From positions 1 through 45,592 of IMG/VR virus record IMGVR_UViG_3300021956_000002: 45,592 nt of DNA. One strand, written 5' to 3'. Shown piece after piece: positions 11,063 to 45,592 of the stretch (positions are counted from its first letter, which is position 1; every line of letters starts with the position of its first letter). The notes below the pieces were generated by a model that was not told the DNA's origin, did no database searches, and was given only the letters and a program-made list of their open reading frames with translations. The stretch is from a virus. The position numbers and the translations under genes were made by a program.

Positions 11063-11110
11063 ATGGATAACATACCCTTAGTTTCCTGTCAAGTAATTTC
11101 TTCAAAGAAA
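11063..11110 (+). pseudogene. rha: 5' stub of a third rha gene (about 15 codons), inverted relative to the intact copies
   Basis: atgGataacatacccttagtttcctgtcaagtaatttcttcaaa matches the reverse complement of about 44627-44670 (start of rha copy 2) with one mismatch. It encodes MDNIPLVSCQVISSK, then diverges to a stop. Confidence 0.7.
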
Positions 11111-11111
11111 A

Positions 11112-15913: not shown

Positions 15914-16266
15914 TGGCTGACTTAAAATTAATAGAAGTAAACTCAGTCCAAGGTAAGTACTATGACTTCGTGAATCAATATGAACCAGATACCAACAATG
16001 TAATATCCCAGAAAATAAAACTAAGATTGAATACATCTAAAGGAGAATGGCAAGAAGATACTGACTTCGGGATAAATACAACCTTAGTAGTTCAAAACTC
16101 TGACAACCCAGACATCGTCGGACAGATCATAGCAGACGAAGTATTAAAGGTACCTAACGTAATAAGTGTGGACATTTCCGCAGATTCGATAGATGATAGT
16201 ACCAGACAGTACTCTCTCGGTATCTCAGCTAAGACGAGTACCTCTCTCATTAGCGTGAGGATATAA
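15913..16266 (+). CDS. Baseplate wedge protein, gpW/gp25-like
   Basis: 117 aa. The size and its position between the spike and the J-like protein fit this call. Contains a GEWQEDTDFGI motif. Confidence 0.5.
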   Translation: MADLKLIEVNSVQGKYYDFVNQYEPDTNNVISQKIKLRLNTSKGEWQEDTDFGINTTLVVQNSDNPDIVGQIIADEVLKVPNVISVDISADSIDDSTRQYSLGISAKTSTSLISVRI

Positions 16267-18202: not shown

Positions 18203-18210
18203 GGATTGAT

Positions 18211-18990: not shown

Positions 18991-18994
18991 TCTT

Positions 18995-20712: not shown

Positions 20713-20725
20713 AAGAGAGGAGTTT

Positions 20726-21109
20726 ATGAAAGCAACAGATTTTTCAGGACAAATAAGTGTAACAAGTCCTACTATGTTTGTATACAGTTTAGCTGGCGGA
20801 AATATCTCGTCAGACAGCTCAGTCAACAGTTTTGAGATACCAAAAGGGTTTAGTCTAGACATAAATAGCACATCGACTGACGCAGCAGGTGTAGTGAACT
20901 TATTCTTAACTAACGATGACCCTTCCTTGGTTACTTATACCCCGTCTCCTGCGTTTACTTTTAATATCTCGGCAGGGAAATTTGGCGGTTCAGGAAAACA
21001 AACATTTGACTCAGGATTCAGAGTCATGACAAAATACTTGGGGGTTTCTTTCACTAAGACCGCAGGTAGCAATGGTGTACTGAATATTTATGGAATAAGC
21101 ACCTATTAG
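20726..21109 (+). CDS. Small beta-rich virion-associated protein (unknown)
   Basis: 127 aa. GAGAGGAG RBS. Lies within the fibre cluster. Confidence 0.4.
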   Translation: MKATDFSGQISVTSPTMFVYSLAGGNISSDSSVNSFEIPKGFSLDINSTSTDAAGVVNLFLTNDDPSLVTYTPSPAFTFNISAGKFGGSGKQTFDSGFRVMTKYLGVSFTKTAGSNGVLNIYGISTY

Positions 21110-21117
21110 GGGGGACC

Positions 21118-21750
21118 ATGGGTTATTTAAATCCAACTTTTATAGGGGGAAGCGGCGGCGGTATAAGTCCCTCTGATAATATCACGATAACTGGGGTCTG
21201 GCAAGCAAGTGACCCCACTACAGCCCAGCAATTGGCTACTAAGAACTATGTAGACACACATAATACGCCCAACCCTAATAATGTAATAGCTGCCTGGAGT
21301 AATGCTACAGCGTACACTGTTGGTAGCTTTGTTTATACGGGGAACGCAATATGGTGTTGTAAGGTGGCTAATACGAACTCAGCGCCTACTTTGGCCAATA
21401 ATAACTGGGTGAGAGAAGCGGATACTGATACGTCTATTCGAAGAGTTTTTACTCAAAATATAAACGCTAACTATACTTGGCCTAAAGGCATATTCTGTGT
21501 AAGAGCAGCAGGACTGACAACGGATATCACAATAACCTTATCTGCTATCTCTTCTTTTGTTGATTCGGGGACGTCTAATCGCATTCAAGAGTTTATCCTA
21601 ATAAAAGCTGATAATGCCAAAAATATTTTATTAAATACGACTGAACCTGACAGATTCAGTGACGGTACTTCTTCAAAAGAAGTAATTGGAAATACAATTT
21701 TTAGATTCATTTTGGACTTTACAAGCGGTAATTGGAGGCTTAATCAATGA
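21118..21750 (+). CDS. Fibre-associated protein carrying the ATKxYVD motif
   Basis: 210 aa. DPTTAQQLATKNYVDTH is the same motif found in 21747.., 27159.. and 27917... Confidence 0.45.
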   Translation: MGYLNPTFIGGSGGGISPSDNITITGVWQASDPTTAQQLATKNYVDTHNTPNPNNVIAAWSNATAYTVGSFVYTGNAIWCCKVANTNSAPTLANNNWVREADTDTSIRRVFTQNINANYTWPKGIFCVRAAGLTTDITITLSAISSFVDSGTSNRIQEFILIKADNAKNILLNTTEPDRFSDGTSSKEVIGNTIFRFILDFTSGNWRLNQ

Positions 21751-24700: not shown

Positions 24701-27131
24701 GTGTTCTGGGTTTTCTTCCGGAACACTCAATGGTTCTTTTCAAATTACAGCTGCGACTTCTACTTCTATAACTATTGTTAATGCGTATGCAGGTGCGACA
24801 ATTACAGGTTCCGCTACACCAAAAAGCTTTGCTGACGGAACTATTGTAGGAGTTCAAACCTTTGTGACTGTGGGTACTGAAGTATGGGTAGCTAGGGACT
24901 ATGCTAGCGCACCTGCCTTCGTTAGAACTTCTTCCGGAATTGTGTATTCTAAGAATACTGCAATTACTTGGAAAATAAATGCTGGCGAAATAAGTACCTA
25001 TTTAACTGCAGCGATGACTACAAGTTCTACAACAATCACAGCGAATGACACTACGGGGTTTCCTAGCTCAGGTGTATTGTATATAGACAATGAGGCCATT
25101 GGATACGCAGCCAAGACTCTGACCACATTTACTAGTTTGACAAGGGCGGCTAACAGCACAGTTTCAGCTGCACATAATATTGGAATTCCTGTTGGATTAC
25201 TAAGCTCAGGGTCAGGATCTTCTAGTAGCAGTGGTACTACTGGAACCGTTTGGGATATGAGTGCCCAGGATTGGAACTCTGGTACTGTAGCAATGAGTGG
25301 ACTATACCCAAGTGGGAACTTTGTCATTGGTTCAACTCAGTTATCAATCTCCTTTGTTACAGACACTGACGGAGTGGCAAGTGCTACAGTAACCTCAGTG
25401 GGGAACGTACCAGTGGGTAACGCTATCTGTGGTAGCCAAAAAGTAATCATTGATGACCTGAAATCATTTACTCGGTTGCCTATTATTAAAGCATTATTCA
25501 AAGCAGTAAGCACAAACTTGTCATTGACAAATAATACAACAGACAGTTTAGCATTTGGTTTCCTATGCTATGACGTGTCCAATACTTTCTTGGGGTTCTA
25601 TGGACCGTCGAAAGCGCCTTTTGCTTTACCTAATACTACTAAGTTTTCTGATAGTGTACTTGATACAATTCAGTTTCCACAGACTGTATATAAAGCTGCA
25701 CCCTTAGTCTATGTTCCAAATGCTATTACGGGTGCAGTTAACTTTGGACTAAAATATGTAGCGGTGTCTAAGGATTTACCAGCTACTGGGACATATCAAA
25801 CTGGTCTATTAAGCTATCAACCGGTTGTTACTAGTACTGTTGCACCTAATCCTTCATTCGCTACAGCAGTGACTACAAATGCTAAGACTTCTTATTACCA
25901 GATCATAGGTAATAGACTTAGACTCACTTGGGACTACACATTCACTGGGCCTACTTCTGGATCCAACATTGGTGGCTCAGGTGGTATCTATATTGTACCT
26001 TTACCGACAGGGCTTACTTTCAGTGCGTCTGCTTACCCCGATATTGCGTCTTCTCCTGACGTTGGATTTAATCAAAGGTACAGTGTAGGGAAATGTAAGT
26101 TTAATGCTTCAGGGTCTTATGCGACGGGGGATTGTTACATCTATAGTACAACCCAGTATTACGTTGTAGCTTCTGGGGGGTCTCCATTTACTTGGGGACA
26201 AGGGTCAAGCTATTTCGGGCTATCTGGAGTCCAATGGCAGTTTGATATTGACGCTTTCTTAGACTCTGTTCCTGTGAACTGTAGAACTAGTTCTAACGTC
26301 CCATTAGGGGAAGTATATGCGGATTACATTATACCTACTACCAGTACAACAATCCCTGGTTCACAGCCCGTAAACTACTCTTCAAAGATAGAAGATACTG
26401 GTGGGTTTGTCACAACAGGGGCCGCTTGGAAATTTACAAATACAACGGGCGCCAAACTGACTTTACAAGTAATCTTATCTGGGGTCCAAACTACAGGGTC
26501 TGCTGCGAGCCTTAGATTATTTGTTAATGGTGTTGTTTACATTTCCTCTTATTATCTCATTTCCTCTACGGGGGGTGTTCAAAGTACTTCAGTCATTATT
26601 AGATTGAATCCTGGTGATTACTTTGATGCAAGGCCGGATGGTACTACAACGGGGGTAAATACTTGGCGTATACAGTGTGTCAATATTGGCTCTAATCAAA
26701 CAATTAGTACAGAGCCAACTATAAAAGGTCAATATTTTACTAGGAATAATACTGCAACCACTAATGGTACTTTAATTTTTGAAGTAGCTGACCCTTCTAC
26801 TCCTGACAATTTTTCTGCATACAACAAGGCCACGGGTATATTCACTGCCCCCTTAAGCGGGACTTATTCATTTGGGATGAGATTCATGACAGGAGCGTTG
26901 AGTGCAGGTACTGCAGGGAATATAACTTCTACAGTGACCTCTGGAGCGTTAGTCACTTCTGTGAATTTCATGGAATCATACACGGCCACTGCAGAAAGGT
27001 GTAGGTTCTCTTTCGGTGGCTATATTCTTCCGTTAAATCAGGGGGACACAGTAAAATTTAGTTGTGGATTACCTTCTGTGATGTATGGAGACCTCAATTT
27101 CTTTTCTTTCTATCGAATTGGCAATAAATGA
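21747..27131 (+). CDS. Giant (1794 aa) multidomain tail fibre / receptor-binding protein
   Basis: ATKQYVD motif near the N-terminus. Two copies of a roughly 45-aa GFP..G.I.IDNE.I.Y..K....F..L.R......AAH motif at 22998-23135 and 25050-25184. A pectin-lyase-type beta-helix-like segment at about 23838-24370. Two tandem C1q/TNF-like domains at the C-terminus, about 26349-26690 and 26700-27128. Confidence 0.65.
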   Translation: MTVANNNISYNFGGIINFDQNIPTWGNYLYRLDATNQDLTIIMPPIPDPSNNFDPGRIAFQRIDSVPSRVVTITYGNTGSYVIPVTTDVFDFVVILDPDNPAEDIDVTIRRLSANTASPSIQLTGDVTAPSSSSGTLTTTVASVGGKTASAIAQSVTDTVSATSSNTNSTIVKRDASGNFSTSQITLGADPTANLQAATKQYVDNKGIAAYPAAFVGGTNLNIVKNFNPTATPVWNTGHLYAVPANTFKNVGDRIEMEYYLIAPPAPYSFQFLIGIMGYSPTTPTPSIPNDSQIKTRTTLSMVSHQNFLITAEMFVTSADGNTQYISIGEGQGYPVNENFEIDFYCYFLCSKSDQFTIYKSQWNFYPAQGTLGYYQADEKTIHLSSTNATLSSLMPPSNTSITANISSSDVNVNVTSTAGFPTAGYIKIDNEVIIYTGKTATSFTGLSRGQLSTTAAAHTSGANTYLIANNVPTSAAGATVVSAIVTAAIPTVDGLYAFNIAGSGAASAVAAGDIARLTSGVWAVVYPYSTMTVSQVYSSSTSDLWALGSAQWYEVLGGNNLTNFVQNIAFSISTLPNVTCATTANITLSGTQTIDGVAVVAGQYVLVKNQTLQYNNGIYLVAAGAWVLQMYNSGSNIYQTPTGTTYASLNINNGVLYVNSGTANANSQFQCSIVNPSNTIGNVLSAVTFTSKRVSPNRDVFNSYVSVNVGNNSQNNGTSSYPYLTQAQALTGASFPHCMNLAVSGSVYSESLSVTSGQSNLLIQALDSSKKGGKCQINGTYTLGSSNTRFSLKDLTVNSGSSAGVICSTGNLYRHEFENIFFQGTGTSFLTIASDAVNWITFRNIDVTGAPSANLALPAFANAFTLNIYDQSSRLPITGLGAVNTIINMYQDNLNVRIYRDFLGTLNYSGNAFDYPVNGMITSYQTLMTMSQWTTDTSYNGLWLIVGALPPTIAITGTSSSGGLVTLSFATLGYVPAIVGSYLVCSGFSSGTLNGSFQITAATSTSITIVNAYAGATITGSATPKSFADGTIVGVQTFVTVGTEVWVARDYASAPAFVRTSSGIVYSKNTAITWKINAGEISTYLTAAMTTSSTTITANDTTGFPSSGVLYIDNEAIGYAAKTLTTFTSLTRAANSTVSAAHNIGIPVGLLSSGSGSSSSSGTTGTVWDMSAQDWNSGTVAMSGLYPSGNFVIGSTQLSISFVTDTDGVASATVTSVGNVPVGNAICGSQKVIIDDLKSFTRLPIIKALFKAVSTNLSLTNNTTDSLAFGFLCYDVSNTFLGFYGPSKAPFALPNTTKFSDSVLDTIQFPQTVYKAAPLVYVPNAITGAVNFGLKYVAVSKDLPATGTYQTGLLSYQPVVTSTVAPNPSFATAVTTNAKTSYYQIIGNRLRLTWDYTFTGPTSGSNIGGSGGIYIVPLPTGLTFSASAYPDIASSPDVGFNQRYSVGKCKFNASGSYATGDCYIYSTTQYYVVASGGSPFTWGQGSSYFGLSGVQWQFDIDAFLDSVPVNCRTSSNVPLGEVYADYIIPTTSTTIPGSQPVNYSSKIEDTGGFVTTGAAWKFTNTTGAKLTLQVILSGVQTTGSAASLRLFVNGVVYISSYYLISSTGGVQSTSVIIRLNPGDYFDARPDGTTTGVNTWRIQCVNIGSNQTISTEPTIKGQYFTRNNTATTNGTLIFEVADPSTPDNFSAYNKATGIFTAPLSGTYSFGMRFMTGALSAGTAGNITSTVTSGALVTSVNFMESYTATAERCRFSFGGYILPLNQGDTVKFSCGLPSVMYGDLNFFSFYRIGNK

Positions 27132-27158
27132 CTTGTTGCCTTTGTTAAGGAGATTTTT

Positions 27159-27521
27159 ATGTCGATAGGTTTTTGGGATAATATAGATATCAGTGGAAAT
27201 AAAGTAATTAACTCAGGCGCTCCTACTTCCTCCGGGGATTTAGCAAATAAGAGCTATGTAGATGGGTTAGCACCTACGGCAGGTTCATTTATCTCAGTAA
27301 CTTCGGGGGCAGTGGCGGTAGCTCCTTTGACCGGCAGCTTTGGTGATGGAGTCCTCACTTCGTTTACAGTAAACGTACCAAACAACAACGTCATAACTGC
27401 GGTTTACAATAACTCTACTAACCAAGCAGTAAATGTAACAACAACGGTCGCTAGTAATGTAGTAACTTTTTCTTTTTTAATCGCACCAACAACAAACCAA
27501 TTTAGGTATGTAATCATATGA
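27159..27521 (+). CDS. Small fibre-like protein, paralog A
   Basis: 120 aa. ISGNKVINSGAPTSSGDLANKSYVD. Alignable with 27917..28330. Confidence 0.5.
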   Translation: MSIGFWDNIDISGNKVINSGAPTSSGDLANKSYVDGLAPTAGSFISVTSGAVAVAPLTGSFGDGVLTSFTVNVPNNNVITAVYNNSTNQAVNVTTTVASNVVTFSFLIAPTTNQFRYVII

Positions 27522-27859
27522 CTGTAGGTAATCCATTCATTACACAACTATTGCTGTCTACAGACACAGTTATCTATCTAAGTTTCGTAGATAGTTTACC
27601 AGTATCTGGGACTCTACAAATAGAGTCAGAGCTTATTTATTATTCTGGGAAGAATATAGAGACTTCAGCATTGACTGGAGTAGTCCGTGGGCTGCTCTCT
27701 ACTACACCAGTACAGCATGAGCTTTATACTGGTGTAATTGGAGTAAACCTTACTACGTCTCTAGGGTTTAGCGACGCACAAACTCTGACTATGTCAGTTA
27801 CGAACCCAGCAAGCGGGGATAAGATAATTTTATTTAATTTTGTTCAACAAGTTTCTTAA
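27518..27859 (+). CDS. Small protein carrying the third copy of the IDNE-type motif
   Basis: LPVSGTLQIESELIYYSGKNIETSALTGVVRGLLSTTPVQH at 27596-27733 resembles the two motifs inside the giant fibre. Confidence 0.45.
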   Translation: MTVGNPFITQLLLSTDTVIYLSFVDSLPVSGTLQIESELIYYSGKNIETSALTGVVRGLLSTTPVQHELYTGVIGVNLTTSLGFSDAQTLTMSVTNPASGDKIILFNFVQQVS

Positions 27860-27884
27860 TAGGTTATAGCTGCTCTAACCTATT
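27858..27884 (+). other. Intergenic hairpin (9-bp stem, no U-tract)
   Basis: aataggtta (27858-27866) / taacctatt (27876-27884), with a 9-nt loop. The stem includes the upstream stop codon. Confidence 0.4.
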
Positions 27885-27916
27885 AAGATTTCAATCTAGC
27901 AGCGGGAGAATTTATC

Positions 27917-28330
27917 ATGGATATTTTATCTAGTTTAGACCTGAAGAGTTCGCAAAAGATTATCAATGCTCCTTTGCCAATTGCGGATGGGGACTTAGCG
28001 TCAAAGAAATATGTGGATACCGCAGTTGCTGGTGTTTCTGCACCTACTGCAGGAGAGGGTATCGCTATCTCTAGCGGTGTAATTTCTATTTCCGGGAATG
28101 GTAAAACTGCACTTTTTGGGAACGGCGAGCTCACTTCATTTGTCCTTACTGGGATCAAACAAAGTTCTATTATCCAAGCGTTTTCTGTAGACGCAGGAGG
28201 TGCTCAAAGCGTTGTTTTAGTGAATGCTTCTATTGTTAGCGATGGTTCTGGTGGATTCAATGCTAACATTTCAGTAGGTCAAGCACCTGCTCCAAATAGC
28301 CTTAAGATCGTAGCTCTTTACTTGTTTTAA
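27917..28330 (+). CDS. Small fibre-like protein, paralog B
   Basis: 137 aa. LKSSQKIINAPLPIADGDLASKKYVD. GGGAGA RBS. Confidence 0.5.
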   Translation: MDILSSLDLKSSQKIINAPLPIADGDLASKKYVDTAVAGVSAPTAGEGIAISSGVISISGNGKTALFGNGELTSFVLTGIKQSSIIQAFSVDAGGAQSVVLVNASIVSDGSGGFNANISVGQAPAPNSLKIVALYLF

Positions 28331-28365
28331 TTAACTCTAAGTAAATCAGTCATTCTTCGTTCTCT

Positions 28366-28397
28366 GGCACTTTGTTATGACTAGGTAACAAAGTGTC
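28366..28397 (+). terminator. Strong hairpin ending the fibre operon (10-12 bp stem, weak U-tract)
   Basis: cactttgtta (28368-28377) / taacaaagtg (28386-28395), loop tgactagg. It is not followed by a clean T run. Confidence 0.4.
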
Positions 28398-28427
28398 CTC
28401 AACCCTAATTCTACATTAAAATTGTTC

Positions 28428-28456
28428 TTGATTCTTTAGTAGTTACGGCGTAATGT
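28428..28456 (+). promoter_or_regulatory. Candidate sigma70-type promoter for the small membrane-protein genes
   Basis: TTGATT 28428-28433, 17-nt spacer, TAATGT 28451-28456. Confidence 0.4.
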
Positions 28457-28480
28457 AGCTATATGGAGGACTACAATACA

Positions 28481-28798
28481 ATGCAATTAGCAATAAAGGT
28501 GCCTATGGATCCGATAAAGAATCTATTTCTTATTTCTTTCCGTTATAAATTTACCCCAGCTATACTGTGTGCTGTAATGGGGGTAACTTTTAATCATTTT
28601 TATCAACAAAATGACCAAGAAATCTTACAACATAATATTAATACTAAGAATGCTTTGCAATCTGCTCTCAGTAGTTACGAAGTAAAAGAAGAACAATTAG
28701 AAGTTAGAGAAAAGTCTTTCTTAGCTATCTACGAAAGTCATTGTAAACAATATGAATCTGTGATGGGAAGAGACTGTACAACTGGGAGAACTAAATGA
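28481..28798 (+). CDS. Small membrane protein (one TM plus a coiled region); i-spanin-like or holin-like candidate
   Basis: The start is trimmed to ATG 28481, 10 nt after GGAGGA (28465-28470). TM segment FTPAILCAVMGVTF. Confidence 0.4.
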   Translation: MQLAIKVPMDPIKNLFLISFRYKFTPAILCAVMGVTFNHFYQQNDQEILQHNINTKNALQSALSSYEVKEEQLEVREKSFLAIYESHCKQYESVMGRDCTTGRTK

Positions 28799-29031
28799 TA
28801 ATAAACTACACAGCCTTATTCCTAACAATGTTTCTTCTATGTTCAAACAAAATACAGATGCAAAAAGAAATCATAGCGTCAAACCAAGAGATCATAGAAC
28901 TCTTGCAACAAGGAAATGACACAGACAGAAAGTTGTTTACTTGGTATACTGTGTATAGTAAATTTAGTAAAGAGAAGATAACTCCAATGTCTAAAGTATT
29001 AGGAGCTCATAATGCCACTAATAAAGGGTAA
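28795..29031 (+). CDS. Small secreted or lipoprotein-like protein (o-spanin-like candidate)
   Basis: 78 aa. The N-terminus [19 protein letters not shown] is a hydrophobic signal ending in Cys. ATGA overlap with the upstream gene. Confidence 0.35.
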
Positions 29032-29170
29032 AAGTGAAGAAGCTTTTAAGAAAAATGTTAAAACTGAAATTGAAGCAGGTAAGCCTCAAAAGCAAGCTGT
29101 AGCTATTGCGTATTCTGTTCAACGGGAATCAAAGAGTAATGGCGACAAGAAGGCGGATAAGAAAAGATAA
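29012..29170 (+). CDS. Small basic conserved protein (52 aa), missed by the >=60-aa track
   Basis: AGGAG (29001-29005) then ATG 29012. [35 protein letters not shown] resembles a small protein motif I recall from many phage and bacterial genomes. Confidence 0.45.
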
Positions 29171-29477
29171 AGAAGGTGGGGATGGCTTGAAACTAGGTGG
29201 GCTTGAAAAAGAACTAGTTGAAAAGGGAGTTAGGTTAGATAAACTTAATTCCAACCACGTCTTCTCACTCATCGTGATAGGGATCGTGGTTGCTATGGCT
29301 TACTACAGTATCTCTATAGCACTAAGTACTATGGATAAATCTGAGAAGACTATGCTCGAAGTTGTCAGAGCTAGTAATGAAATCTCTAAGTCAGTTAATA
29401 GATTGGCTGAGATAGTAAATACGAGTAGCGGGTGTAACATAGCCCGCTCTAATTCATTGTCTGTAACTAAGGACTAA
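29139..29477 (+). CDS. Membrane protein, holin candidate
   Basis: The start is trimmed to ATG 29139 ([13 protein letters not shown]...). Hydrophobic core [23 protein letters not shown]. Its stop overlaps the stop of the convergent minus-strand gene. Confidence 0.4.
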
Positions 29478-29668
29478 TTAAGTATATTTTCTAAGTCACT
29501 TAGTTCAGGTGCTTCACTTCCATACTCAGACTCATAGCTTTCTAAGGCTTTCTCAAAGCCAGGCCATTCTCTTATACCTTGATATAACAATTCCTTAAGA
29601 AGTCTGAGATATACTACAGAAGCTTCTAAGTATTCTACCTCTACTAAAATCTTTTTATTTTTTACCAT
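29474..29668 (-). CDS. Hypothetical acidic protein, last gene of the leftward operon
   Basis: 64 aa, start coupled to the upstream gene. Confidence 0.4.
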   Translation of the reverse strand: MVKNKKILVEVEYLEASVVYLRLLKELLYQGIREWPGFEKALESYESEYGSEAPELSDLENILN

Positions 29669-35064: not shown

Positions 35065-35236
35065 ATCCTGAATGAGTGGAATCTAAAATACTTTGTACAG
35101 CTTCGAGGCGTTTTACATAGTTAGCGATGTGCTTTGTACTCGCTGTTTCACTTTGTATCTCAGCTCTATAGTCCCTATACAGGGATAACAAAGTCTCGGT
35201 GGAAAAGTTTGAATAATAACGTACTAAGTTGTTCAT
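35039..35236 (-). CDS. Hypothetical protein
   Basis: 65 aa, in the operon. Confidence 0.4.
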   Translation of the reverse strand: MNNLVRYYSNFSTETLLSLYRDYRAEIQSETASTKHIANYVKRLEAVQSILDSTHSGFGGKNEKL

Positions 35237-35709
35237 TGTATACTCCTTGCAAAGTTGTCCATTAGATTGTTGTATGAGTTTTCATTGCCTACAAAGTAAA
35301 AATACGGAGTCATGACTCCGTATTTCGTATGTCCAAGATTAAAAGTACAGTGACCGATAATCTCATGAGTGATTAAAGTCTTTCTCTCAAAGTGGTTTAG
35401 ATATGCCCACTTAATCTTATTTATCTCTACGTGGTTCCCAGTATCTTGTTGACTTAGATTAAACTTTGTATCTTCACCGTCTTTATCACAGTGACCCAGT
35501 TCACGAGACGCTGGGTCTTCTGTGAATACCCAAGAGTCAACTTTGTCCCAAACAGGGGCATGTATTCCTCTTTTTTCTAAGTCTTCTAATACCTCAGTTA
35601 GTACCTGTGTTATCTCTTGATCCTTGTACTGAGATCCTCTGTTTGCCCCACAACTAACTGTGAGCAATGCTAATATAGCAATTCCAATTAACTTTCTTAT
35701 CTCTGTCAT
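35233..35709 (-). CDS. Secreted lipoprotein with a zincin-like HE-x3-H-x6-H motif
   Basis: Signal plus lipobox-like MTEIRKLIGIAILALLTVSC. The motif is THEIIGHCTFNLGH. Confidence 0.5.
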   Translation of the reverse strand: MTEIRKLIGIAILALLTVSCGANRGSQYKDQEITQVLTEVLEDLEKRGIHAPVWDKVDSWVFTEDPASRELGHCDKDGEDTKFNLSQQDTGNHVEINKIKWAYLNHFERKTLITHEIIGHCTFNLGHTKYGVMTPYFYFVGNENSYNNLMDNFARSIQ

Positions 35710-35730
35710 CCTTTGTCATCCTTAAGATGT

Positions 35731-35880
35731 TTATAGTTCTACGTATCCTGGTACGATGTAAATAGGTATAACATCGTCTATTATTCCAGGATTATCTTCG
35801 ATAATGATGTTGTTCTGAGTGTTGGTTGTACAAGCTGCATATAACGGGGTAAGAATAATCAGAAGTAAGAACTTAGTCAT
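35731..35880 (-). CDS. Small lipoprotein (49 aa), below the track cutoff
   Basis: ATGACTAA overlap with the upstream stop. MTKFLLLIILTPLYAAC is a signal plus lipobox-like Cys, followed by TTNTQNNIIIEDNPGIIDDVIPIYIVPGYVEL. Confidence 0.45.
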   Translation of the reverse strand: MTKFLLLIILTPLYAACTTNTQNNIIIEDNPGIIDDVIPIYIVPGYVEL

Positions 35881-36136
35881 AGTATCCTTCTTCCTTTGCC
35901 AAAATTCTAAGTTCAGGGTGGTCTATAAGTCTATTTGATATCTGCTCTTCTAGTGGAGACAAGAAGTGATAAAGTTCATTGATTGCATATCTTAGTTCAT
36001 CAATCTTATTTTTTATTTGAATAGCCCTGGATATTTCTATTCTTAATTGAGATTCTATGCTTCTAGACCCTGTGTGGCTATGCTTGCTCATATTTGCTAT
36101 ATATTGTCTCGCCAGTCCTTTGTTTATCTTTGCCAT
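35873..36136 (-). CDS. Hypothetical helical protein
   Basis: 87 aa. Starts from the shared AAGGAGACAAAGTATG cassette. Confidence 0.45.
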   Translation of the reverse strand: MAKINKGLARQYIANMSKHSHTGSRSIESQLRIEISRAIQIKNKIDELRYAINELYHFLSPLEEQISNRLIDHPELRILAKEEGYYD

Positions 36137-36147
36137 ACTTTGTCTCC

Positions 36148-36897
36148 TTAATTCATTTCCATTTCTAATATCTTCAGAAGTTTAGGGTAAAATTCTATTG
36201 CTCTACTCCCATCCATCTTATAAATTTCTTCTTGAGTAAAACTCTTCCACTTTTCATGATTATGTCTTTTACATCCCACTTTTATAACATCATCTATTAT
36301 TACTATAGGATATTCAAAACCAGAGATTGATTTTAATCTCTTTAATGAATGGGTAGCTCCTTCTAAGTTAGCTCTCCCTAAATCAGCTCCTTCTAAGTTA
36401 GCTCCTTCTAAGTTAGCTCCTCTTAAGTCAGCTCCTCTTAAGTCAGCTCTTTCTAAGTTAGCATTTTCTAAGTCAGCTCCTTCTAAGTTAGCTCCATATA
36501 AGTTAGCTCCTCTTAAGTCAGCTCCTCTTAAGTCAGCTCTTTCTAAGTCAGCTCCTCTTAAGTCAGCTCCATATAAGTTAGCTTTTTCTAAGTTAGCTCC
36601 ATATAAGTTAGCTTTTTCTAAGTTAGCTTTTTCTAAGTTAGCTCTTCTTAAGTTAGCCCCTCTTAAGTCAGCTCTTTCTAAGTTAGCATTTTCTAAGTCA
36701 GCTCCTTCTAAGTTAGCTCCATATAAGTTAGCTCCTTTTAAGTTAGCTCCTTCTAAGTCAGCTCTTTCTAAGTCAGCTCCTCTTAAGTCAGCTCCTTCTA
36801 AGTCAGCTCTTTCTAAGTCAGCTCTTTCTCCACCTTCTTCATTATTTAGCCATTTCTTATGTTTATCTAAAATCAGGCCTAGTTCTTCCTTAGTCAT
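36148..36897 (-). CDS. Pentapeptide-repeat protein 3: 25-aa head, 31 pentapeptides and a 69-aa C-terminal domain
   Basis: MTKEELGLILDKHKKWLNNEEGGER, then 31 uninterrupted A(D/N)LxX units, then ATHSLKRLKSISGFEYPIVIIDDVIKVGC...KLLKILEMEMN. Confidence 0.85.
   Translation of the reverse strand: MTKEELGLILDKHKKWLNNEEGGERADLERADLEGADLRGADLERADLEGANLKGANLYGANLEGADLENANLERADLRGANLRRANLEKANLEKANLYGANLEKANLYGADLRGADLERADLRGADLRGANLYGANLEGADLENANLERADLRGADLRGANLEGANLEGADLGRANLEGATHSLKRLKSISGFEYPIVIIDDVIKVGCKRHNHEKWKSFTQEEIYKMDGSRAIEFYPKLLKILEMEMN
36358..36822 (-). repeat. Coding tandem repeat with 15-nt period (31 units) inside pentapeptide-repeat gene 3
   Basis: Near-identical units such as agctcctcttaagtc / agctctttctaagtc. 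Larger internal duplications are also visible. Confidence 0.9.
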
Positions 36898-36924
36898 ACT
36901 TTGTTCTCCTTAATCCATTTCCTT

Positions 36925-37170
36925 TTATTTTTTTAGTAATTTTAACTGAAACGGATATTCTTCATGAGTATCTCCCGGTATTAACTCCCAATCATCATTT
37001 TCTTCTGTAAAAATAAATCTTAAATTAATACTCCTACCTTCCTCCATGTCATAATTTATTTCTATAATCTCACCAATTGCTATTAACGGGCTAAAAAATA
37101 TACATTGGACTATATCCCCAACTTTGAATCCTCTATTATACTCTTCTGCGGTCAATGGAATTGTCCCCAT
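36925..37170 (-). CDS. Hypothetical protein
   Basis: 81 aa. It is followed by a degenerate remnant of a pentapeptide-repeat gene 3' end (ggaaatggattaagg). Confidence 0.4.
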   Translation of the reverse strand: MGTIPLTAEEYNRGFKVGDIVQCIFFSPLIAIGEIIEINYDMEEGRSINLRFIFTEENDDWELIPGDTHEEYPFQLKLLKK

Positions 37171-37172
37171 GT

Positions 37173-37424
37173 TTACTTCACTTCACTCTTAGAATTCATC
37201 AAGGTTAATTTAGCTGTTAGTAATATAATATCATTCATATATTCATCTTTATCCATATAATAGGGACAACGTTTATGGTGGGAGAATGACCATGAAGAAC
37301 CTAACTCTTCTTTCTCATATTCATATATTTCTTCACATCTACAGCCATTATTTTCATAGTATAATATCTCTTCTATTGTTTTAATCTTATATGACAAATC
37401 ATCGATAAGCTCTTCCTTAGTCAT
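37173..37424 (-). CDS. Small Cys/His-containing hypothetical protein
   Basis: 83 aa. MTKEEL start. CRCEE...HHKRCPYY. Confidence 0.4.
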   Translation of the reverse strand: MTKEELIDDLSYKIKTIEEILYYENNGCRCEEIYEYEKEELGSSWSFSHHKRCPYYMDKDEYMNDIILLTAKLTLMNSKSEVK

Positions 37425-37689
37425 TCTTTATCCCCTTTTTTAGTTCCTTTACCTTTGTTAAAACTTCATTAAATAATTCATTTTTTCTTATAGAAAGAAT
37501 CCTATCCACATACTCTTTTATATGAATACTAAGCAGACGCTCTTCCCCCAGCAACTCTGGTTTGAACGTCATCTCTAAGAACTTATTCTCTTCAGTTTTA
37601 CGTTGTATCTTCGCCGTCACTTTTATAAACTTCGTATAGTCTACGAATGATTCTATATTTACACCGCCTAGTTCAATGTAATTATCCAT
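37417..37689 (-). CDS. Hypothetical protein
   Basis: 90 aa. Starts from the shared AAGGAGACAAAGTATG cassette. Confidence 0.4.
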   Translation of the reverse strand: MDNYIELGGVNIESFVDYTKFIKVTAKIQRKTEENKFLEMTFKPELLGEERLLSIHIKEYVDRILSIRKNELFNEVLTKVKELKKGIKND

Positions 37690-37700
37690 ACTTTGTCTCC

Positions 37701-38225
37701 TTAATTCATTTCCATTTCTAATATCTTCAGAAGTTTAGGGTAAAATTTTGTTGCTTCATTCCCGTCCATCTTATAAATTTCTTCTTGAGTAAAACTCTTC
37801 CATTGTTCATAAGTATGTGTTTGGCATCCAACTTCTATAACATCGTCTATTATTGCTATCGGGTATTCAAAACCAAAGATTGATTTTAATCTCTTTAGTG
37901 AATGGATAACTCCTCTTAAGTTAGCACCTCTTAAGTTAGCACCTCTTAAGTCAGCTAGTCTTAAGTCAGCTAGTCTTAAGTCAGCTATTCTTAAGTCAGC
38001 TAGTCTTAAGTCAGCTATTCTTAAGTCAGCTTTTTCTAAGTTAGCTCCATATAAGTTAGCCCCTCTTAAGTCAGCTAGTCTTAAGTCAGCTAGTCTTAAG
38101 TCAGCTATTCTTAAGTCAGCTTTTTCTAAGTTAGCTCCATATAAGTTAGCCCTCTCTCCTCCTTCTTCATTATTTAGCCATTTCTTATGTTTATCTAAAA
38201 TCAGGTCTAGTTCTTTCTTTGTCAT
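37701..38225 (-). CDS. Pentapeptide-repeat protein 2: 25-aa head, 16 pentapeptides and a 69-aa C-terminal domain
   Basis: MTKKELDLILDKHKKWLNNEEGGER, then 16 A(D/N)LxX units rich in ADLRI/ADLRL, then VIHSLKRLKSIFGFEYPIAIIDDVIEVGC...KLLKILEMEMN. Confidence 0.85.
   Translation of the reverse strand: MTKKELDLILDKHKKWLNNEEGGERANLYGANLEKADLRIADLRLADLRLADLRGANLYGANLEKADLRIADLRLADLRIADLRLADLRLADLRGANLRGANLRGVIHSLKRLKSIFGFEYPIAIIDDVIEVGCQTHTYEQWKSFTQEEIYKMDGNEATKFYPKLLKILEMEMN
37911..38150 (-). repeat. Coding tandem repeat with 15-nt period (16 units) inside pentapeptide-repeat gene 2
   Basis: Runs of agctagtcttaagtc / agctattcttaagtc. A 75-nt block is duplicated. Confidence 0.9.
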
Positions 38226-38418
38226 GCTTTGTTCCTTCTACATGGACTAAAATTACTGAAGACCCGAATAACGCGTATTTTGATACCCATTCACAATTCC
38301 TACATTCAAGGTAAAATGTTCTATCTTTTAACATCGAATAGATTTTTTCTTCGTCCAAAATATTTTTAGACCTTATACCACATTGGTTACAGGTAACCGA
38401 AAATTCATCTGACTTCAT
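38191..38418 (-). CDS. Small zinc-ribbon protein (two CxxC pairs)
   Basis: 75 aa. CNQC ... CRNC. Its start cassette GGAGAACAAAGTATG sits inside the 3' end of pentapeptide-repeat gene 1. Confidence 0.45.
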   Translation of the reverse strand: MKSDEFSVTCNQCGIRSKNILDEEKIYSMLKDRTFYLECRNCEWVSKYALFGSSVILVHVEGTKHDKERTRPDFR

Positions 38419-38779
38419 ACTTTGTTCTCCTCACTCCTCTTAAGTCAGCATTTTCTAAGTTAGCTCTTTCTAAGTTAGCTCTTTCTATGTTAGCCCCTCT
38501 TAAGTCAGCTCTTCCTAAGTTAGCTCCTCTTAAGTCAGCTCTTCCTAAGTTAGTCCAATATAAGTTAGCTCCTTCTAAGTTAGCTTTTTCTAAGTTAGCC
38601 CATCTTAAGTCAGCTTCTCTTAAGTCAGCTCCTCTTAAGTCAGCTTCTCTTAAGTTAGCTCTTCTTAAGTTAGCCCCTCTTAAGTCAGCTCTTTCTAAGT
38701 TAGCCCTCTCTCCTCCTTCTTCATTATTTAGCCATTTCTTATGTTTATCTAAAATCAGGTCTAGTTCTTTCTTTGTCAT
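38405..38779 (-). CDS. Pentapeptide-repeat protein 1: 25-aa head and 18 pentapeptides, lacking the C-terminal domain
   Basis: Same head as copy 2, then 18 A(D/N)LxX units, then a 9-aa tail VRRTKYEVR. First gene of the leftward operon. Confidence 0.85.
   Translation of the reverse strand: MTKKELDLILDKHKKWLNNEEGGERANLERADLRGANLRRANLREADLRGADLREADLRWANLEKANLEGANLYWTNLGRADLRGANLGRADLRGANIERANLERANLENADLRGVRRTKYEVR
38435..38704 (-). repeat. Coding tandem repeat with 15-nt period (18 units) inside pentapeptide-repeat gene 1
   Basis: Read directly, e.g. agctcttcctaagttagctcctcttaagtc occurs twice. Confidence 0.9.
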
Positions 38780-39058
38780 ACTCTGTTCTCCTTAAGATGT
38801 TAGTACCGCACTGTAAATACACTTAGTCCGAAGTTCAGAAATTTGTATTGTTTAATGTGGGAAACTGCACCACTAGCTTACTACTCATTCTAAGAGTATT
38901 TATCGTTGCAATCTAATCTTGATTGTAACTACAGACAGATCTCACTGTCATATGGTCAAAGCTCATTTAGTCGGCTTCCCCTTAACTCAACCAGGTACTG
39001 TGCGCTTGATTCCTGATTCCTCTCGGTGCTTTGGGAGAGTATCCTCTTCCATATAAAT

Positions 39059-39100
39059 AAAGTACCATGCACTAAATCATTTGTCAACTCATGTGACAGA
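39059..39100 (-). promoter_or_regulatory. Leftward sigma70-type promoter with a palindromic operator (site 2)
   Basis: On the minus strand: TCTGTCACATGAGTTGACAAATG, identical to site 1 at 21 of 23 positions. -35 TTGACA (39087-39082), 17-nt spacer, -10 TACTTT (39064-39059). This implies a leader of about 270 nt before ATG 38779. Confidence 0.55.
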
Positions 39101-39157
39101 TTATTTTGTCACCTCGTCTGATACATTGGAAACAAAGAAAAACTATGAAGAAAGAAG

Positions 39158-39187
39158 TTGACACGAGATACAAAGTAGGAGTACATT
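39158..39187 (+). promoter_or_regulatory. Rightward sigma70-type promoter, divergent from the leftward one
   Basis: TTGACA 39158-39163, 18-nt spacer, TACATT 39182-39187. Confidence 0.45.
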
Positions 39188-39390
39188 GTCCTTAGTTGAC
39201 GGAGTAAGACGTACTGACGAACAGCTCCGAACCTTCAAGCACTGGATTGAAAATTGCGGCTAGGTAATACTGGCGAACGGACGACAGTTGCTAAGACTTC
39301 TACCTTGTTTGTAGGGGCGGCACATTTGGAACTGAGAAGACTTAGTAACATAGTTTACTAGGTTTATTTGAGTTGGAGTGAACTCTAAAA

Positions 39391-39434
39391 GTCCTTGGTA
39401 TTTTGATAAAAAGTCCTTGGTATTTTGATAAAAA
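39391..39434. repeat. Perfect tandem duplication of a 22-bp unit
   Basis: gtccttggtattttgataaaaa occurs twice (39391-39412 and 39413-39434), preceded by a partial aaaa. Confidence 0.95.
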
Positions 39435-39809
39435 ATAGAGTCTAAAAATCTTTATTTACTTAGTTTACTTTGTCCGTAGATACTAAGTTTTCCTATTTTT
39501 AGGGGGGGTCGAGAATTAGCCAAGGTTCTAAGGCTCGCAACCGTTGCAGCCCAACAGCTTCTCTGTATTATCCTATTATTTTGAAACTGGTACTATTGAA
39601 ACAAATAAAAACAAAGAAGGAACTTGGTTGAGACTAGCTAACTAGGGAACAGCCAAAACCGGAAATCGATGTTTTCAAAACTTTTTAGACCTAGAGGGCC
39701 TCGATGACTCAGTTGACTAGGCCTAAAATTCACACAACATAATCTATGTTCTCAATACTGACATAATCTAAGACCTCAGAGACTAAGATTTTCCTTGTAA
39801 TCATTACTA

Positions 39810-39832
39810 TTTGTCAGTATAGTTGACAAAGA
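39810..39832 (+). promoter_or_regulatory. Palindromic operator site 3, immediately upstream of terS, with no convincing -10
   Basis: tTTGTCAgtatagtTGACAAa shares TTTGTCA and AGTTGACAAA with sites 1 and 2. No TAnnnT lies 16-18 nt downstream of TTGACA (39823-39828). Confidence 0.45.
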
Positions 39833-43435: not shown

Positions 43436-44075
43436 ATTTAGTTTAGGTCTAGAGAAGAGATACGCAGTATGGCTACGTTCTATCTATAAGTCTTTCTGGG
43501 CTTACTCTAGCGTCTACTTAGTACGAGGTCTCCAAGAAGGGAGAGACTTCGGGGACTTTGTACCTAGGGAGTTTATGAAGAAGCTAAGTTACGATGTTAT
43601 CGATGACTTAATAGCTATCTCATTTAATAAGTTACTAAAGGACTTTAAGATGTCTATCCCTGGGGTCGGAGTTGTAACCAGGTTGACTGAGTTTAGGAAG
43701 AACTCAGTAGAAAGTATAGAGAAGAACATAGAAGCTATCTACGAGAAACGTAAGACTCAGCTTACTTTGTTCCGTGAAAGTTCTTTGTTCACTGGAACAA
43801 ATTCTAAAGTCTTCTTAGAGAAGTATAAGAAACCTAAGTTCAAGTTCACTGAGACTACGTCTAGGACAGACATAAATAACCTCAATAGAGACTTATCCAT
43901 ATCTCAAGCTCAGTCTCTAGGTTTGACAGAAGGTATTTGGAGTACTTCAGGAGATGAAAGAGTGAGGAAGAGTCATCGTAAATTGCAAGGAAAGAAAGTA
44001 TCTTTTATGGACTTGCCAGTGGAGTACAATGATTACAATTGTCGATGTGTTATCTTGCCAATTGTTTCGACATAG
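43383..44075 (+). CDS. Minor head protein, Mu F / SPP1 gp7-like. The start is probably ATG 43392 or 43395.
   Basis: The C-terminal SGDERVRKSHRKLQGKKV...YNCRC resembles the D.rVR..H..l.G signature of Phage_Mu_F. Confidence 0.55.
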   Translation: MEIMMKRRKIKKTIKVSRFSLGLEKRYAVWLRSIYKSFWAYSSVYLVRGLQEGRDFGDFVPREFMKKLSYDVIDDLIAISFNKLLKDFKMSIPGVGVVTRLTEFRKNSVESIEKNIEAIYEKRKTQLTLFRESSLFTGTNSKVFLEKYKKPKFKFTETTSRTDINNLNRDLSISQAQSLGLTEGIWSTSGDERVRKSHRKLQGKKVSFMDLPVEYNDYNCRCVILPIVST

Positions 44076-44670
44076 CTTCTTTCAGTTGAGTAGGATTCGT
44101 TACACCTCGTAACATAAGGTTTATAGAACCTTGCAAGGTATAACCAAGTTTCAAGGATTGCTCAGGGGTCATGTCTCTTCTCATACCTTTCTCATGGTAA
44201 CCAAATGCAATCTCGTTGGTTGACTTTGCCAGAGAAACGTAGTAGCCCACGTGACCCTCTTTTCCTTCCAATGTTCTACGCATGTGGTCAGCTACGTTCT
44301 TTTGTACTTGGTTGAGAAAAGCAAAGTCATCACCTCTTACTCTCTTAACTTTGTTTTCTTCGCGCATTCTTTTGAACTCAGCAATGTAAGATTTTTTCCA
44401 AGTCATTGCTTCTTTACCAGTATAACCCATGAGAAGAAGCGTAGTTGCATCTTCGTCGAGAACACACATCTTTTCTTTCCTACGTGCGCCTTGATAAGTT
44501 GAGAATACAAAATTGGATTCTGAGATATGGCCCTCGGAAATAAGATTCTCCACATCTCTTAGAACTATAAAGTGCTCTTTCCCAGTGAATTCAGCAATCT
44601 TAAGGGAAGTAGTAGCTGGGACATTTTTTGAAGAAATTACTTGACAGGAAACTAAGGGTATGTTATTCAT
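44050..44670 (-). CDS. rha: Rha-family phage regulatory / antirepressor-like protein, copy 2
   Basis: PATTSLKIAEFTGKEHFIVLRDVENLISEG. Paralog of 5911..6564. Its 3' end overlaps the convergent Mu-F-like gene by 26 nt. Confidence 0.75.
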   Translation of the reverse strand: MNNIPLVSCQVISSKNVPATTSLKIAEFTGKEHFIVLRDVENLISEGHISESNFVFSTYQGARRKEKMCVLDEDATTLLLMGYTGKEAMTWKKSYIAEFKRMREENKVKRVRGDDFAFLNQVQKNVADHMRRTLEGKEGHVGYYVSLAKSTNEIAFGYHEKGMRRDMTPEQSLKLGYTLQGSINLMLRGVTNPTQLKEAMSKQLAR

Positions 44671-44962: not shown

Positions 44963-45592
44963 GTGGTAGTAAGATATGACGGTTTTAGGATAGAAAAATA
45001 CAATAGAACACCCCAAGGTTACTTAGACGTTGCAGGCGTGGTCACTAGAACTGGAGTCTTCGTTTACCACGATGGCAACGAATTACGTAGTGAATCTGAG
45101 GTGCTAAATCCCAAGTCACTTAGTACTCTCAAGGCTTTACCTGTTACTCACAATCACCCACCAGACCTATTAGACCCTGGTTCTACATCAGCCTATATGA
45201 AAGGCTATCTGGGTAGCGAAGGTTACCCAGAGAAAAATGGTGAACTTACCTTACTAAAAGTAGACCACATCATCATCACCGACCCTGTTCTTATAGACGC
45301 TATCGAGACTGAGAAGATAGGTCATATAAGCATGGGTTACAACTGTGACGTAGAACCAGCCAGCGGTGTTTTCGATGGTTTAGAATATACAAAGAAACAA
45401 GTCAACATTGTCTATAATCATTTAGCCTGCGTCGCCCACGCCAGAGGAGGCGAGGTATGCGCAATTTACAAAGGGGACGAAGCTATGGTGTATCGCATAG
45501 ATAACGAAGAAAAGAAAGACGATGACAAGAAGGATATGAAGAAAAAGGATAGTCATCGTAAAAAAGATGACGAAGAAAAATGTGACGATGAC
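44963..45592 (+). CDS. Prohead protease/scaffold-like protein (DUF2213-like), 5' part. It continues through the terminal repeat into window nt 120-584, giving 364 aa on the circle.
   Basis: GTG 44963 lies 4-5 nt after GGAGGA (44953-44958). The frame is open to the window end. VVVRYDGFRIEKYNRTPQGYLDVAGVVTRTGVFVY...LPVTHNHPP...GHISMGYNC...VYNHLACV resembles DUF2213 phage proteins. This ORF is not in the supplied track because it lacks a stop inside the window. Confidence 0.55.
   Translation, partial: MVVRYDGFRIEKYNRTPQGYLDVAGVVTRTGVFVYHDGNELRSESEVLNPKSLSTLKALPVTHNHPPDLLDPGSTSAYMKGYLGSEGYPEKNGELTLLKVDHIIITDPVLIDAIETEKIGHISMGYNCDVEPASGVFDGLEYTKKQVNIVYNHLACVAHARGGEVCAIYKGDEAMVYRIDNEEKKDDDKKDMKKKDSHRKKDDEEKCDDD
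45474..45592. repeat. Terminal direct repeat, partner of nt 1-119
   Basis: Identical over all 119 nt. Confidence 0.95.

Follow-up and report, generated by a model that had tools for sequence, protein, structure and literature searches.

An array of three pentapeptide-repeat genes at the head of a phage operon: members of a widespread head-solenoid-tail family with a putative counter-defence role

The virus genome IMGVR_UViG_3300021956_000002 (IMG/VR; positions 1 to 45,592, analysed over its full length of 45,592 nt and referred to as the window) carries an array of three genes for pentapeptide-repeat proteins (PRPs) at the beginning of a leftward operon. All three are encoded on the minus strand. 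Copy 1 (38405..38779, 124 aa) consists of a head and 18 pentapeptides and ends without a tail domain in VRRTKYEVR, copy 2 (37701..38225, 174 aa) consists of a head, 16 pentapeptides and a tail, and copy 3 (36148..36897, 249 aa) consists of a head, 31 pentapeptides and a tail. Net charge and isoelectric point (pI), calculated from the sequence, are +4 and 9.7 for copy 1, -1 and 6.3 for copy 2, and -12 and 5.0 for copy 3. A preliminary description of this DNA, made from its letters without database searches, had proposed an anti-defence system composed of DNA-mimicking proteins. In our analysis the three genes fall into a large phage family of head-solenoid-tail proteins, and we consider the chances about even that they are counter-defence proteins which act by direct protein binding of an abortive-infection sensor.

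The gene number, the common 25-aa head and the repeat numbers of 18, 16 and 31 given in the preliminary description were exact. The head, MTK(K/E)EL.LILDKHKKWLNNEEGGER, was detected in all three copies by a head-specific hidden Markov model (HMM, E ~1e-12 to 3e-13), contains the cap-helix motif ..L..H..W.. right before the first pentapeptide, and is followed by repeats in unbroken register. Copies 1, 2 and 3 match Pfam family PF00805 with E = 2e-37, 8e-22 and 4e-60, respectively, their scores of 77-199 bits lying well above the cut-off of 20.2. Only two units of copy 1 are off consensus (TNLGR and ANIER). In copy 2 the exposed position i+2 is occupied by Leu or Ile in 8 of 16 pentapeptides, and the pentapeptides of copy 3 are Glu-rich at i+1. 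The DNA encoding the head is identical in copies 1 and 2 (75/75 nt), thus their duplication must be very recent. Copies 2 and 3 end in the same non-repeat tail of ~70 aa, as had been claimed, with 191 of 216 nt identical; both match the tail HMM (E = 1.6e-33 and 6.3e-33) and phrog_37032 (E = 1e-15 and 1.5e-18), and the tail domain of copy 2 (37701..37916, minus strand) additionally matches phrog_31567. Copy 1, which lacks this domain, is best described as a truncated derivative of the head-solenoid-tail family.

An AlphaFold2 model was calculated for copy 2 with 36 homologues and reached a mean predicted local distance difference test (pLDDT) score of 91.7. In this model, which covers copy 2 alone, a cap helix (residues 3-17) is followed by a quadrilateral beta-helix with one short strand per pentapeptide, while four strands (112-138) together with a short (139-144) and a long helix (147-173) make up the tail. 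Invariant positions of the tail are G133-C134, W142, I150, M153 and A158; H137, D154 and F161 are near-invariant. Modelled alone, the tail had a pLDDT of 84 and gave no significant match to PDB folds (best E = 1.4). Sequence searches of the PDB with the tail returned noise only, no Pfam family was matched, even when 40 diverse tails were included, and a word-indexed search with the 70-aa tail alone yielded no candidates.

The solenoid, for its part, strongly resembles consensus-type PRPs. In a PDB profile search these were matched with E = 8e-57 to 4e-36, and in the Foldseek comparison of the model the best matches were the synthetic protein beta1, Np275/276, HetL and Rfr23, the best-fitting ones with a root-mean-square deviation of 0.8-1.9 A over 82-100 columns. 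A search of BFVD returned many uncharacterised phage PRPs. The likeness to Np275/Np276, HetL, Rfr23, Alr5209 and beta1 derives from the repeats only; these proteins are cellular or synthetic, do not possess the head and tail of the window proteins, and no functional inference follows from it. Copy 3 also passes the NCBIfam cut-off for Alr5209 (140 against 125 bits), a repeat-driven model and the only one that was passed, and the resulting equivalog call was rejected as meaningless since the score stems from two repeat-driven stretches.

MfpA, QnrB1 and AlbG share the right-handed quadrilateral beta-helix but match the copy 2 model more weakly (Foldseek E = 3e-4 to 1e-2). By analogy, the window proteins could be modulators of the Qnr/MfpA type that bind host gyrase or topoisomerase IV, either to protect against poisons or to throttle host replication early in infection. 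Phages do encode small gyrase inhibitors, namely Igy and Gip (PMC10886550), and a PRP encoded in a terminal-repeat operon of Listeria phage CKA15 resembled gyrase inhibitors according to HHpred (PMC12282133). Nevertheless, this function appears very improbable. All three copies stay far below the NCBIfam cut-offs of the Qnr equivalog (at most 66.2 bits against 240), of all Qnr subfamilies and of MfpA (at most 59 against 360), and none of the closest structures (beta1, Np275/276, HetL, Rfr) is directed against a topoisomerase. Compared to Qnr, MfpA, AlbG and McbG, the window copies have uninterrupted repeats without Qnr-like loops, a different C-terminal domain and a hypervariable rod, and two of the three are not acidic. 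The rods of 9-31 repeats found in close relatives are hard to reconcile with a fit into the gyrase DNA gate. A fixed rod length as in proteins of the Qnr/MfpA type, which have a C-terminal helix dimer and a ~100-A rod, was not observed; the window tail ends in the long helix 147-173.

To define the family, a profile built from the tail only was used for an exhaustive search of 1.84 billion representative proteins, and the matches were counted as clusters at 50% identity. A total of 2,871 clusters were found at E <= 1e-3 and 1,585 at E <= 1e-10. Without exception the tail lies at the C-terminus of short proteins (63-309 aa) and is preceded by at least two pentapeptides in 126 of the 147 best matches that could be scored. 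In a few members hexapeptide-like or Cys-rich repeats replace the pentapeptides, and several different N-terminal caps exist. Because the tail is constant and C-terminal while rods and caps differ, the tail is to be considered the family-defining part, the rod the variable and the head the exchangeable one. Complete members with only 2-5 pentapeptides, corresponding to about one coil, occur, and rods reach more than 30 repeats.

Full-length homologues (residues 1-171 of 174, 44-54% identity) were identified by tblastn in several phage groups, comprising P22-like Salmonella phages (ST64T orf232, ST104 ORF19, phage L, g341c, ST160), phage Oslo, Edwardsiella phages, 110 Rheinheimera phages, one Providencia phage and Vibrio phages. 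PHROGs contains head and repeats as phrog_7713, which was matched as well, and the tail as phrog_37032 and phrog_31567, all annotated as of unknown function. The assumption that no phage system with this architecture had been described is therefore not tenable for the single gene: annotated examples exist in P22-like, Edwardsiella, Rheinheimera and Vibrio phages, and PHROGs lists it too. Tandem pairs of PRP genes with a common head and tail and differing repeat arrays were present at 5 of 80 viral loci and a trio at none of them. It is only the trio, a diversified triple array with one truncated copy, that is unusual. The tails of the window proteins belong to a subtype with the motif FYP(K/R)LL, like those of Vibrio phage 24 gene product 24_60 and of the Salmonella proteins (~40-44% identical), and share only ~25-31% identity with most tails of the FW..WK subtype. 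24_60 and the Salmonella proteins extend ~15-25 residues beyond the tail, whereas the window proteins stop right after it. Stand-alone tail proteins (P0135, P0139 and similar) were rejected as a separate architecture and assigned to gene-calling or assembly artefacts: at locus L089 the repeat reading frame continues uninterrupted upstream of the tail-only call, and at locus L090 a run of N lies inside the repeats.

The distribution of charges and lengths within this family bears on the DNA mimicry put forward in the preliminary description. In the form considered here, solenoids of graded length would imitate B-DNA in the manner of Ocr/ArdA or Gam and soak up restriction enzymes, RecBCD-like nucleases or BREX. 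PRP solenoids are roughly DNA-sized, and MfpA, Qnr, AlbG and McbG are regarded as mimics (PMC10886550). Furthermore, copy 3 is acidic, and the homologous gene of phage L adjoins ral and lies near abc1/abc2. In the classical view, protein-DNA complexes are what RexAB-type systems sense, and a mimic could in principle serve as a decoy for sensing of this type. Ocr and ArdA have an analogous proposed role, as they are expressed first by mobile elements and disarm defences, but no sequence or structure relation to the window copies exists; their folds are unrelated to PRPs and they are very acidic. A very high negative charge of this kind is not seen in the window proteins, with pI values from 9.7 down to 5.0: copies 1 and 2 are basic or neutral, and copy 2 exposes Leu and Ile. 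Over 194 family members the net charge of the solenoid varies from -13 to +11 with a median of -3, thus the family is near-neutral. Further points against mimicry are that complete members with 2-5 pentapeptides exist, that a few members use other repeats altogether, and that the conserved element is the tail, not the rod. In addition, neither McbG nor QnrB inhibited BREX in a study whose authors judged DNA mimicry alone to be insufficient (PMC7261183). Given these results and the missed Qnr and MfpA cut-offs, the idea of DNA mimics is poorly supported, and we regard it as unlikely.

Functional information on the family comes from Vibrio phage 24, whose gene 24_60 encodes the single member with a tested function. 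Sucellos (SclA/SclB) is an abortive-infection cassette from the chromosomal integron of V. cholerae and is RexAB-like by predicted structure (bioRxiv 10.1101/2024.07.02.601686). In the same preprint, all six of six phage-24 mutants escaping Sucellos carried Y112R plus N110N/N115D in 24_60, a "pentapeptide repeats containing protein", and deletion of 24_60 led to very high protection by Sucellos; the authors postulate that 24_60 is an anti-defence protein and mention that its repeat region had been mis-assembled. The gene corresponds to locus tag SBVc24_0060 of KJ572844.2. The window tail matches 24_60 by tblastn (E = 4e-8), and the GenBank protein has the same layout of modules, with a helix-cap head, A(N/D)LxG repeats and a tail containing ...RAGCQSYTIEEWFKFTKSDIENMDGYKALSFYPRLL... 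BLASTP of 24_60 against copy 2 gave 45% identity (E = 1e-27) and hhalign against the tail profile a probability of 99%. Because tblastn, module layout, BLASTP and hhalign agree, 24_60 is assigned to the same head-solenoid-tail family as the window copies. Like these, it has an H..(W/F) motif in the head and uninterrupted A(N/D)LxG repeats, and its tail (..AGCQ..EEW..MDG..FYPRLL.., with FYPKLL in the window) is of the same subtype. Instability and assembly problems affect its repeat region too. The gene is surrounded by small early-type genes and follows two methylases and a regulator. In contrast to the window array it is a single gene, it belongs to another phage and host, and the proteins are only 45% identical. 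Homology to a reported anti-Sucellos protein thus favours the anti-defence part of the preliminary description, whereas DNA mimicry as its mechanism is not supported.

The escaper residues would fit the repeat register A-N110-L-Y112-G-A-N115, which would place them in neighbouring repeats at i-1 and i+1, where the side chains point outwards. It is at these same sites, with N/D at i-1 and R/E/Y at i+1, that the repeats of window copies 1-3 differ. In the GenBank protein the corresponding residues appear to be N40, Y42 and N45; the offset of 70 residues equals 14 repeats and would agree with the remark on mis-assembly. The deposited 24_60 (KJ572844.2 12900-13322; L091 4800-5222) has 8 repeats, and since the published residue numbers imply about 14 more, its repeat array is probably collapsed in the deposited sequence.

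The position of the window genes was compared with that of their homologues. A non-coding gap of ~1 kb (38800-39822) separates divergent leftward and rightward operons, and the leftward operon runs from the three PRP genes through many small open reading frames (ORFs) to a RecE-like (DUF3799) exonuclease, an HNH protein and a lysozyme. By position, therefore, the PRP genes are the first ones after the gap and lie upstream of the RecE-like exonuclease. The claim that they are the first genes downstream of a leftward promoter is consistent with this layout, with the ~1-kb gap dividing the divergent operons, while its promoter part could not be substantiated: a candidate sigma-70-like promoter (ATGACA-18-TACAAT, 38922..38951, minus strand, ~140 nt upstream of copy 1) matches 10 of 12 consensus positions, and the promoter scan as a whole did not exceed shuffle expectation. 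In phage L the order of the PL operon is N - ral (anti-restriction) - PRP - gene 17 - cIII - kil - erf - abc1/abc2 (anti-RecBCD), and the PRP gene of phage Oslo has a similar context. P22-like PRPs (ST64T orf232, ST104 ORF19, phage L, epsilon34 gp42, g341c gp37; full-length homology, 44-50% identity) thus occupy an equivalent slot near the start of the leftward early operon. These phages are temperate and lambdoid with one copy, while the phage of the window, which is probably virulent, has three copies and a contractile tail. At 80 IMG/VR loci, CI-like repressors and regulators are enriched among the two genes that precede the PRP gene; on its downstream side, Erf/RecT/Bet annealases, RecE-like exonucleases, SSB, Kil and methyltransferase are found, and most neighbours are co-oriented with the PRP gene. 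Taken together, the genomic context supports an accessory, conflict-related role. In L088, a more distant relative (44 kb, Logan SRR20217213), one PRP-tail gene directly follows PolA (10956-11558), and the equivalent operon encodes Gad2-family (anti-Gabija, PF26128) and dGTP-diphosphohydrolase-like proteins.

The N-cIII slot of lambdoid phages holds sieB as well (phage Oslo; phage L paper), hypervariability and paralogy are typical of defence genes too, and one component of the Hailong defence system has a pentapeptide-repeat domain (PMC13586616). Alternatively, the window genes could be phage-borne defence or exclusion morons against other phages, like sieB or rexAB in similar lambdoid slots. 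We consider this quite improbable. Deletion of 24_60 makes phage 24 more sensitive to a host defence, not less, and the window genes are co-oriented within an operon and have no divergent promoter of their own. PADLOC-DB gave no match for the three PRPs or for the ORFs between them, the one marginal PADLOC match (E = 0.002) being an 87-aa ORF that directly follows copy 3. Neither an integrase nor a CI-type repressor was seen in the window, for which reason the phage is probably virulent and not a lysogen-former.

Several findings support a rapid change in repeat number. An ENA contig (ERZ27251979) is 100% identical to the window over about 21 kb, and of the remaining ~17 kb compared almost everything is identical as well. 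The three-gene layout is present in this independent assembly, and copy 1 is identical. Copy 3, however, lacks 225 bp, equivalent to 15 repeats, and has 16 instead of 31 repeats. The missing segment (36433..36657 of the window, minus strand) is flanked by exact direct repeats of 78 nt, which encode ANLYG ANLEG ADLEN ANLER ADLRG and within which the end points of the indel are arbitrary. Close relatives have 9 (P0006), 13 (P0004), 14 (P0003), 16 or 31 repeats, combined with tails of the copy 2 or copy 3 type. Among more than 100 Salmonella homologues the length changes in exact 5-aa steps, and one 15-bp unit makes the difference between phages L and ST64T, whose identity exceeds 99.9% (PMC8022706), a polymorphism in 15-bp steps thus being documented for the P22-like phages. 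Every length variant seen is in frame. The change in repeat number that the preliminary description had considered possible is therefore supported by the copy 3 indel, by the 5-aa steps and by the L/ST64T pair.

Two further observations concern these assemblies. Near 28.4 kb (window ~27700-28410 versus L006 19592-20307) similarity between the window and the ENA contig stops close to the contig end, the one difference between them besides the copy 3 repeats, which may reflect either an assembly-end artefact or a swapped segment. A contig from a third dataset (SRR7109015, L093) matches window 15747-29578 at 100%.

Besides repeat turnover, whole cassettes appear to have been rearranged. Copy 1 departs from copy 2 straight after the last repeat ('...CTTAAGAGGAGT'), where the start cassette GGAGAACAAAGTATG (38416..38430, minus strand) cuts it off and launches an ORF of 75 aa with two CxxC pairs (38191..38418, minus strand), a putative zinc ribbon; the last 11 codons of this ORF overlap the start of copy 2 out of frame. 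The proposed loss of the copy 1 tail exactly at the repeat/tail boundary through a start cassette is in line with this arrangement. The start cassette has two exact occurrences and one with 1 mismatch, a number of three that was reached in no shuffle. A junction of 27 nt, GGAAATGAATTAAGGAGACAAAGTATG, which combines the end of a tail gene with the ribosome-binding site (RBS) and the ATG of the next gene, occurs exactly twice, at 37687..37713 and 36134..36160 (both minus strand), as described before, with 0 expected by chance. The leader 13-mer AACATCTTAAGGA was also found at both places where it had been reported, before the copy 1 start at 38779 (38789..38801, minus strand) and before a start at 35709 (35719-35731), but 2 of 100 shuffles likewise yield two matches, which makes it weaker evidence by itself.

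The relative L004, which is ~94% identical, has a single cassette in place of the array: the leader is followed by an unrelated 78-aa ORF and then by one PRP gene. The same leader thus precedes the 78-aa ORF, and a near-copy, AATATCTTAAGGAGAACAAAGTATG, precedes the PRP gene, whose region matches copy 2 at 88% only. An exact 18-nt copy (35767-35784) of the tail-coding sequence ATAATAGACGATGTTATA (IIDDVI) is located within an unrelated 49-aa ORF downstream of copy 3, with 0 expected by chance, and looks like a recombination scar. The L004 layout with its fused 83-aa and 81-aa ORFs (see below), the identical heads and the 18-mer in the 49-aa ORF together show the reused RBS-ATG cassettes to be recombination joints. 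Growth of the array by cassette duplication and recombination, as suggested earlier, agrees with the single cassette of L004 and with the 75/75 identical nucleotides in the heads of copies 1 and 2. When the junction 23-mer and a head 35-mer were used as DNA probes, nothing was found in IMG/VR or JGI metagenome contigs.

The same data could indicate a largely neutral turnover of repeats, in which one functional gene of unrelated role, e.g. a replication or recombination scaffold, is accompanied by recent redundant or decaying duplicates, produced on the periodic DNA by the recombination system of the phage. The very recent duplication of copies 1 and 2 and the truncation of copy 1 would fit this explanation, as would the sufficiency of a single cassette in the close relative, the RecE-like exonuclease encoded in the operon and the frequent recombination scars (the 18-mer in the 49-aa ORF; the fusion of the 83-aa and 81-aa ORFs in L004, see below). 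The codon differences between the tails (15 non-synonymous against 7 synonymous) suggest weak constraint. On the other hand, the length variants are all in frame, the surface chemistry of the three rods differs systematically and not randomly, each copy has kept a good RBS or translational coupling, and tandem pairs of the same pattern recur in unrelated phages. We therefore assign only a small probability to neutral turnover. DNA mimicry, gyrase modulation, superinfection exclusion and neutral turnover are possible explanations, each of which conflicts with at least one of the features tested.

The mechanism that we infer as most likely is the neutralisation of a sensor of the abortive-infection type by protein-protein contacts along an evolvable rod surface, with a constant function of the tail. 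The data show to which family the genes belong, their fold and modularity, their hypervariability and their place in the operon; counter-defence activity in this phage, its target and the division of roles between rod and tail are inferred. Each family member combines an N-terminal cap helix, a right-handed pentapeptide beta-solenoid of variable length and an alpha/beta tail of ~65-70 aa. The proteins would neutralise a sensor of the host or of a prophage, as reported for 24_60 against Sucellos, and would do so by direct binding. The exposed side chains at i-1, i+1 and i+2 of the rod may form a long, evolvable binding surface, and the invariant tail may provide a constant function, e.g. docking or dimerisation. 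Near-perfect 15-nt periodicity and reused RBS-ATG junctions would allow fast changes in repeat number and composition as well as duplication of whole cassettes, the outcome being a battery of three rods with presumably basic, Leu/Ile-striped and acidic surfaces. A more far-reaching version of this proposal, which we consider possible but rather doubtful, is that the repeat DNA constitutes a contingency locus, in which intragenic recombination and slippage between near-identical 15-nt units as well as cassette duplication at the RBS-ATG joints continually create new solenoid surfaces and lengths, with the paralogues specialised against different sensors of abortive infection or other defences and the tail as their common docking or dimerisation element.

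Several points weigh against a counter-defence role by direct sensor binding. The functional evidence stems from one preprint on a 45%-identical protein of a different phage and host and comes without a mechanism. The operon position is circumstantial, and with a lysozyme gene at its end the operon is not purely early. A search with the portal protein against 185,579 species-representative genomes revealed no prophage relatives that would point to a host or to a Sucellos- or RexAB-like system in it. Copy 1 does not contain the family-defining tail and may be a by-product. The differences in repeat number between metagenomes could partly be due to assembly collapse, as illustrated by the trouble with 24_60 and the N-gap in L090, and hypervariability could be neutral mutational noise of periodic DNA.

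The head-solenoid-tail protein is among the commoner accessory genes of tailed phages, yet it has no mechanism assigned. If the result of the preprint generalises, it would represent a widespread class of counter-defence proteins, and phage pentapeptide solenoids should then no longer be annotated by analogy to Qnr ('quinolone resistance', 'gyrase inhibitor'). If the contingency-locus interpretation holds true, the array would give the phage an inbuilt source of counter-defence diversity. The window amounts to a natural experiment: three paralogues share one head and tail type and differ in surface chemistry, genomes that are otherwise identical are 15 repeats apart, and the contributions of rod length, rod surface and tail can thus be tested directly.

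It had been suggested that Cys-rich small proteins act as partners of the PRPs. Because the 75-aa CxxC ORF is absent from the closest relative, L004, it is not a conserved partner, and with no family match in Pfam, PHROG, NCBIfam or PADLOC the putative zinc-ribbon protein was rejected in this role. Between copies 2 and 3 three small ORFs (90, 83 and 81 aa) are located at 36925..37689 (minus strand). In L004 the 90-aa ORF is kept, while the 83-aa and 81-aa ORFs are joined in frame through a deletion: at L004 10772-10871 the reading frame starts with 19 codons from the beginning of the 83-aa ORF and continues with the body of the 81-aa one (...KIKTIEE|YNRGFKVGD...), at a short AGAAGAG microhomology. 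A plus-strand ORF of 102 aa (38487..38795, ...LAPLKSALPKL...) was rejected as a gene as it is the antisense reading of the copy 1 repeats; antisense ORFs of this kind occur opposite PRP genes in many loci.

Downstream of copy 3, ORFs of 87 and 49 aa are found at 35731..36136 (minus strand). The 49-aa ORF (35731-35880, minus strand) and the following ORF of 158 aa (35233-35709, minus strand) begin, as judged by eye, with hydrophobic, lipoprotein-like signals (...LLTVSCG... and ...LYAACTT... in the 158-aa and 49-aa ORFs). The 158-aa protein contains a HEIIGH...GH motif that resembles the zincin motif HExxH without matching it. Neither ORF had family matches; their products may be envelope-acting accessory proteins.

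The window as a whole represents a complete, circularly closed or permuted genome of ~45.47 kb, since its ends overlap exactly over 119 bp (1-119 and 45474-45592). A megablast search of phage genomes with the locus gave no nucleotide match. The large terminase is ~30% identical to Acinetobacter phage terminases, and the structural genes encode E217/Pa193-like capsid and tail proteins, a sheath initiator and a tail terminator. The phage also encodes its own PolA, a primase-like protein and two Rha paralogues. The primase-like (DUF5906/VapE) and PolA genes (7423-10973, plus strand) lie between the head/neck and the tail genes, which is unusual for replication genes. The Rha/anti-repressor-like paralogues (5911-6564 and 44050-44670, both minus strand) are located amid plus-strand structural genes and are ~78% identical over ~330 nt. 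The gap upstream of the array yielded nothing in an Rfam search of 1 kb. It holds a perfect 2 x 22-nt tandem repeat, AAAAGTCCTTGGTATTTTGATA, at 39387-39430 in addition to short direct and inverted repeats; the 22-mer pair, which could be an operator, an origin or a packaging site, has no exact match in L004 and is present in the ENA contig.

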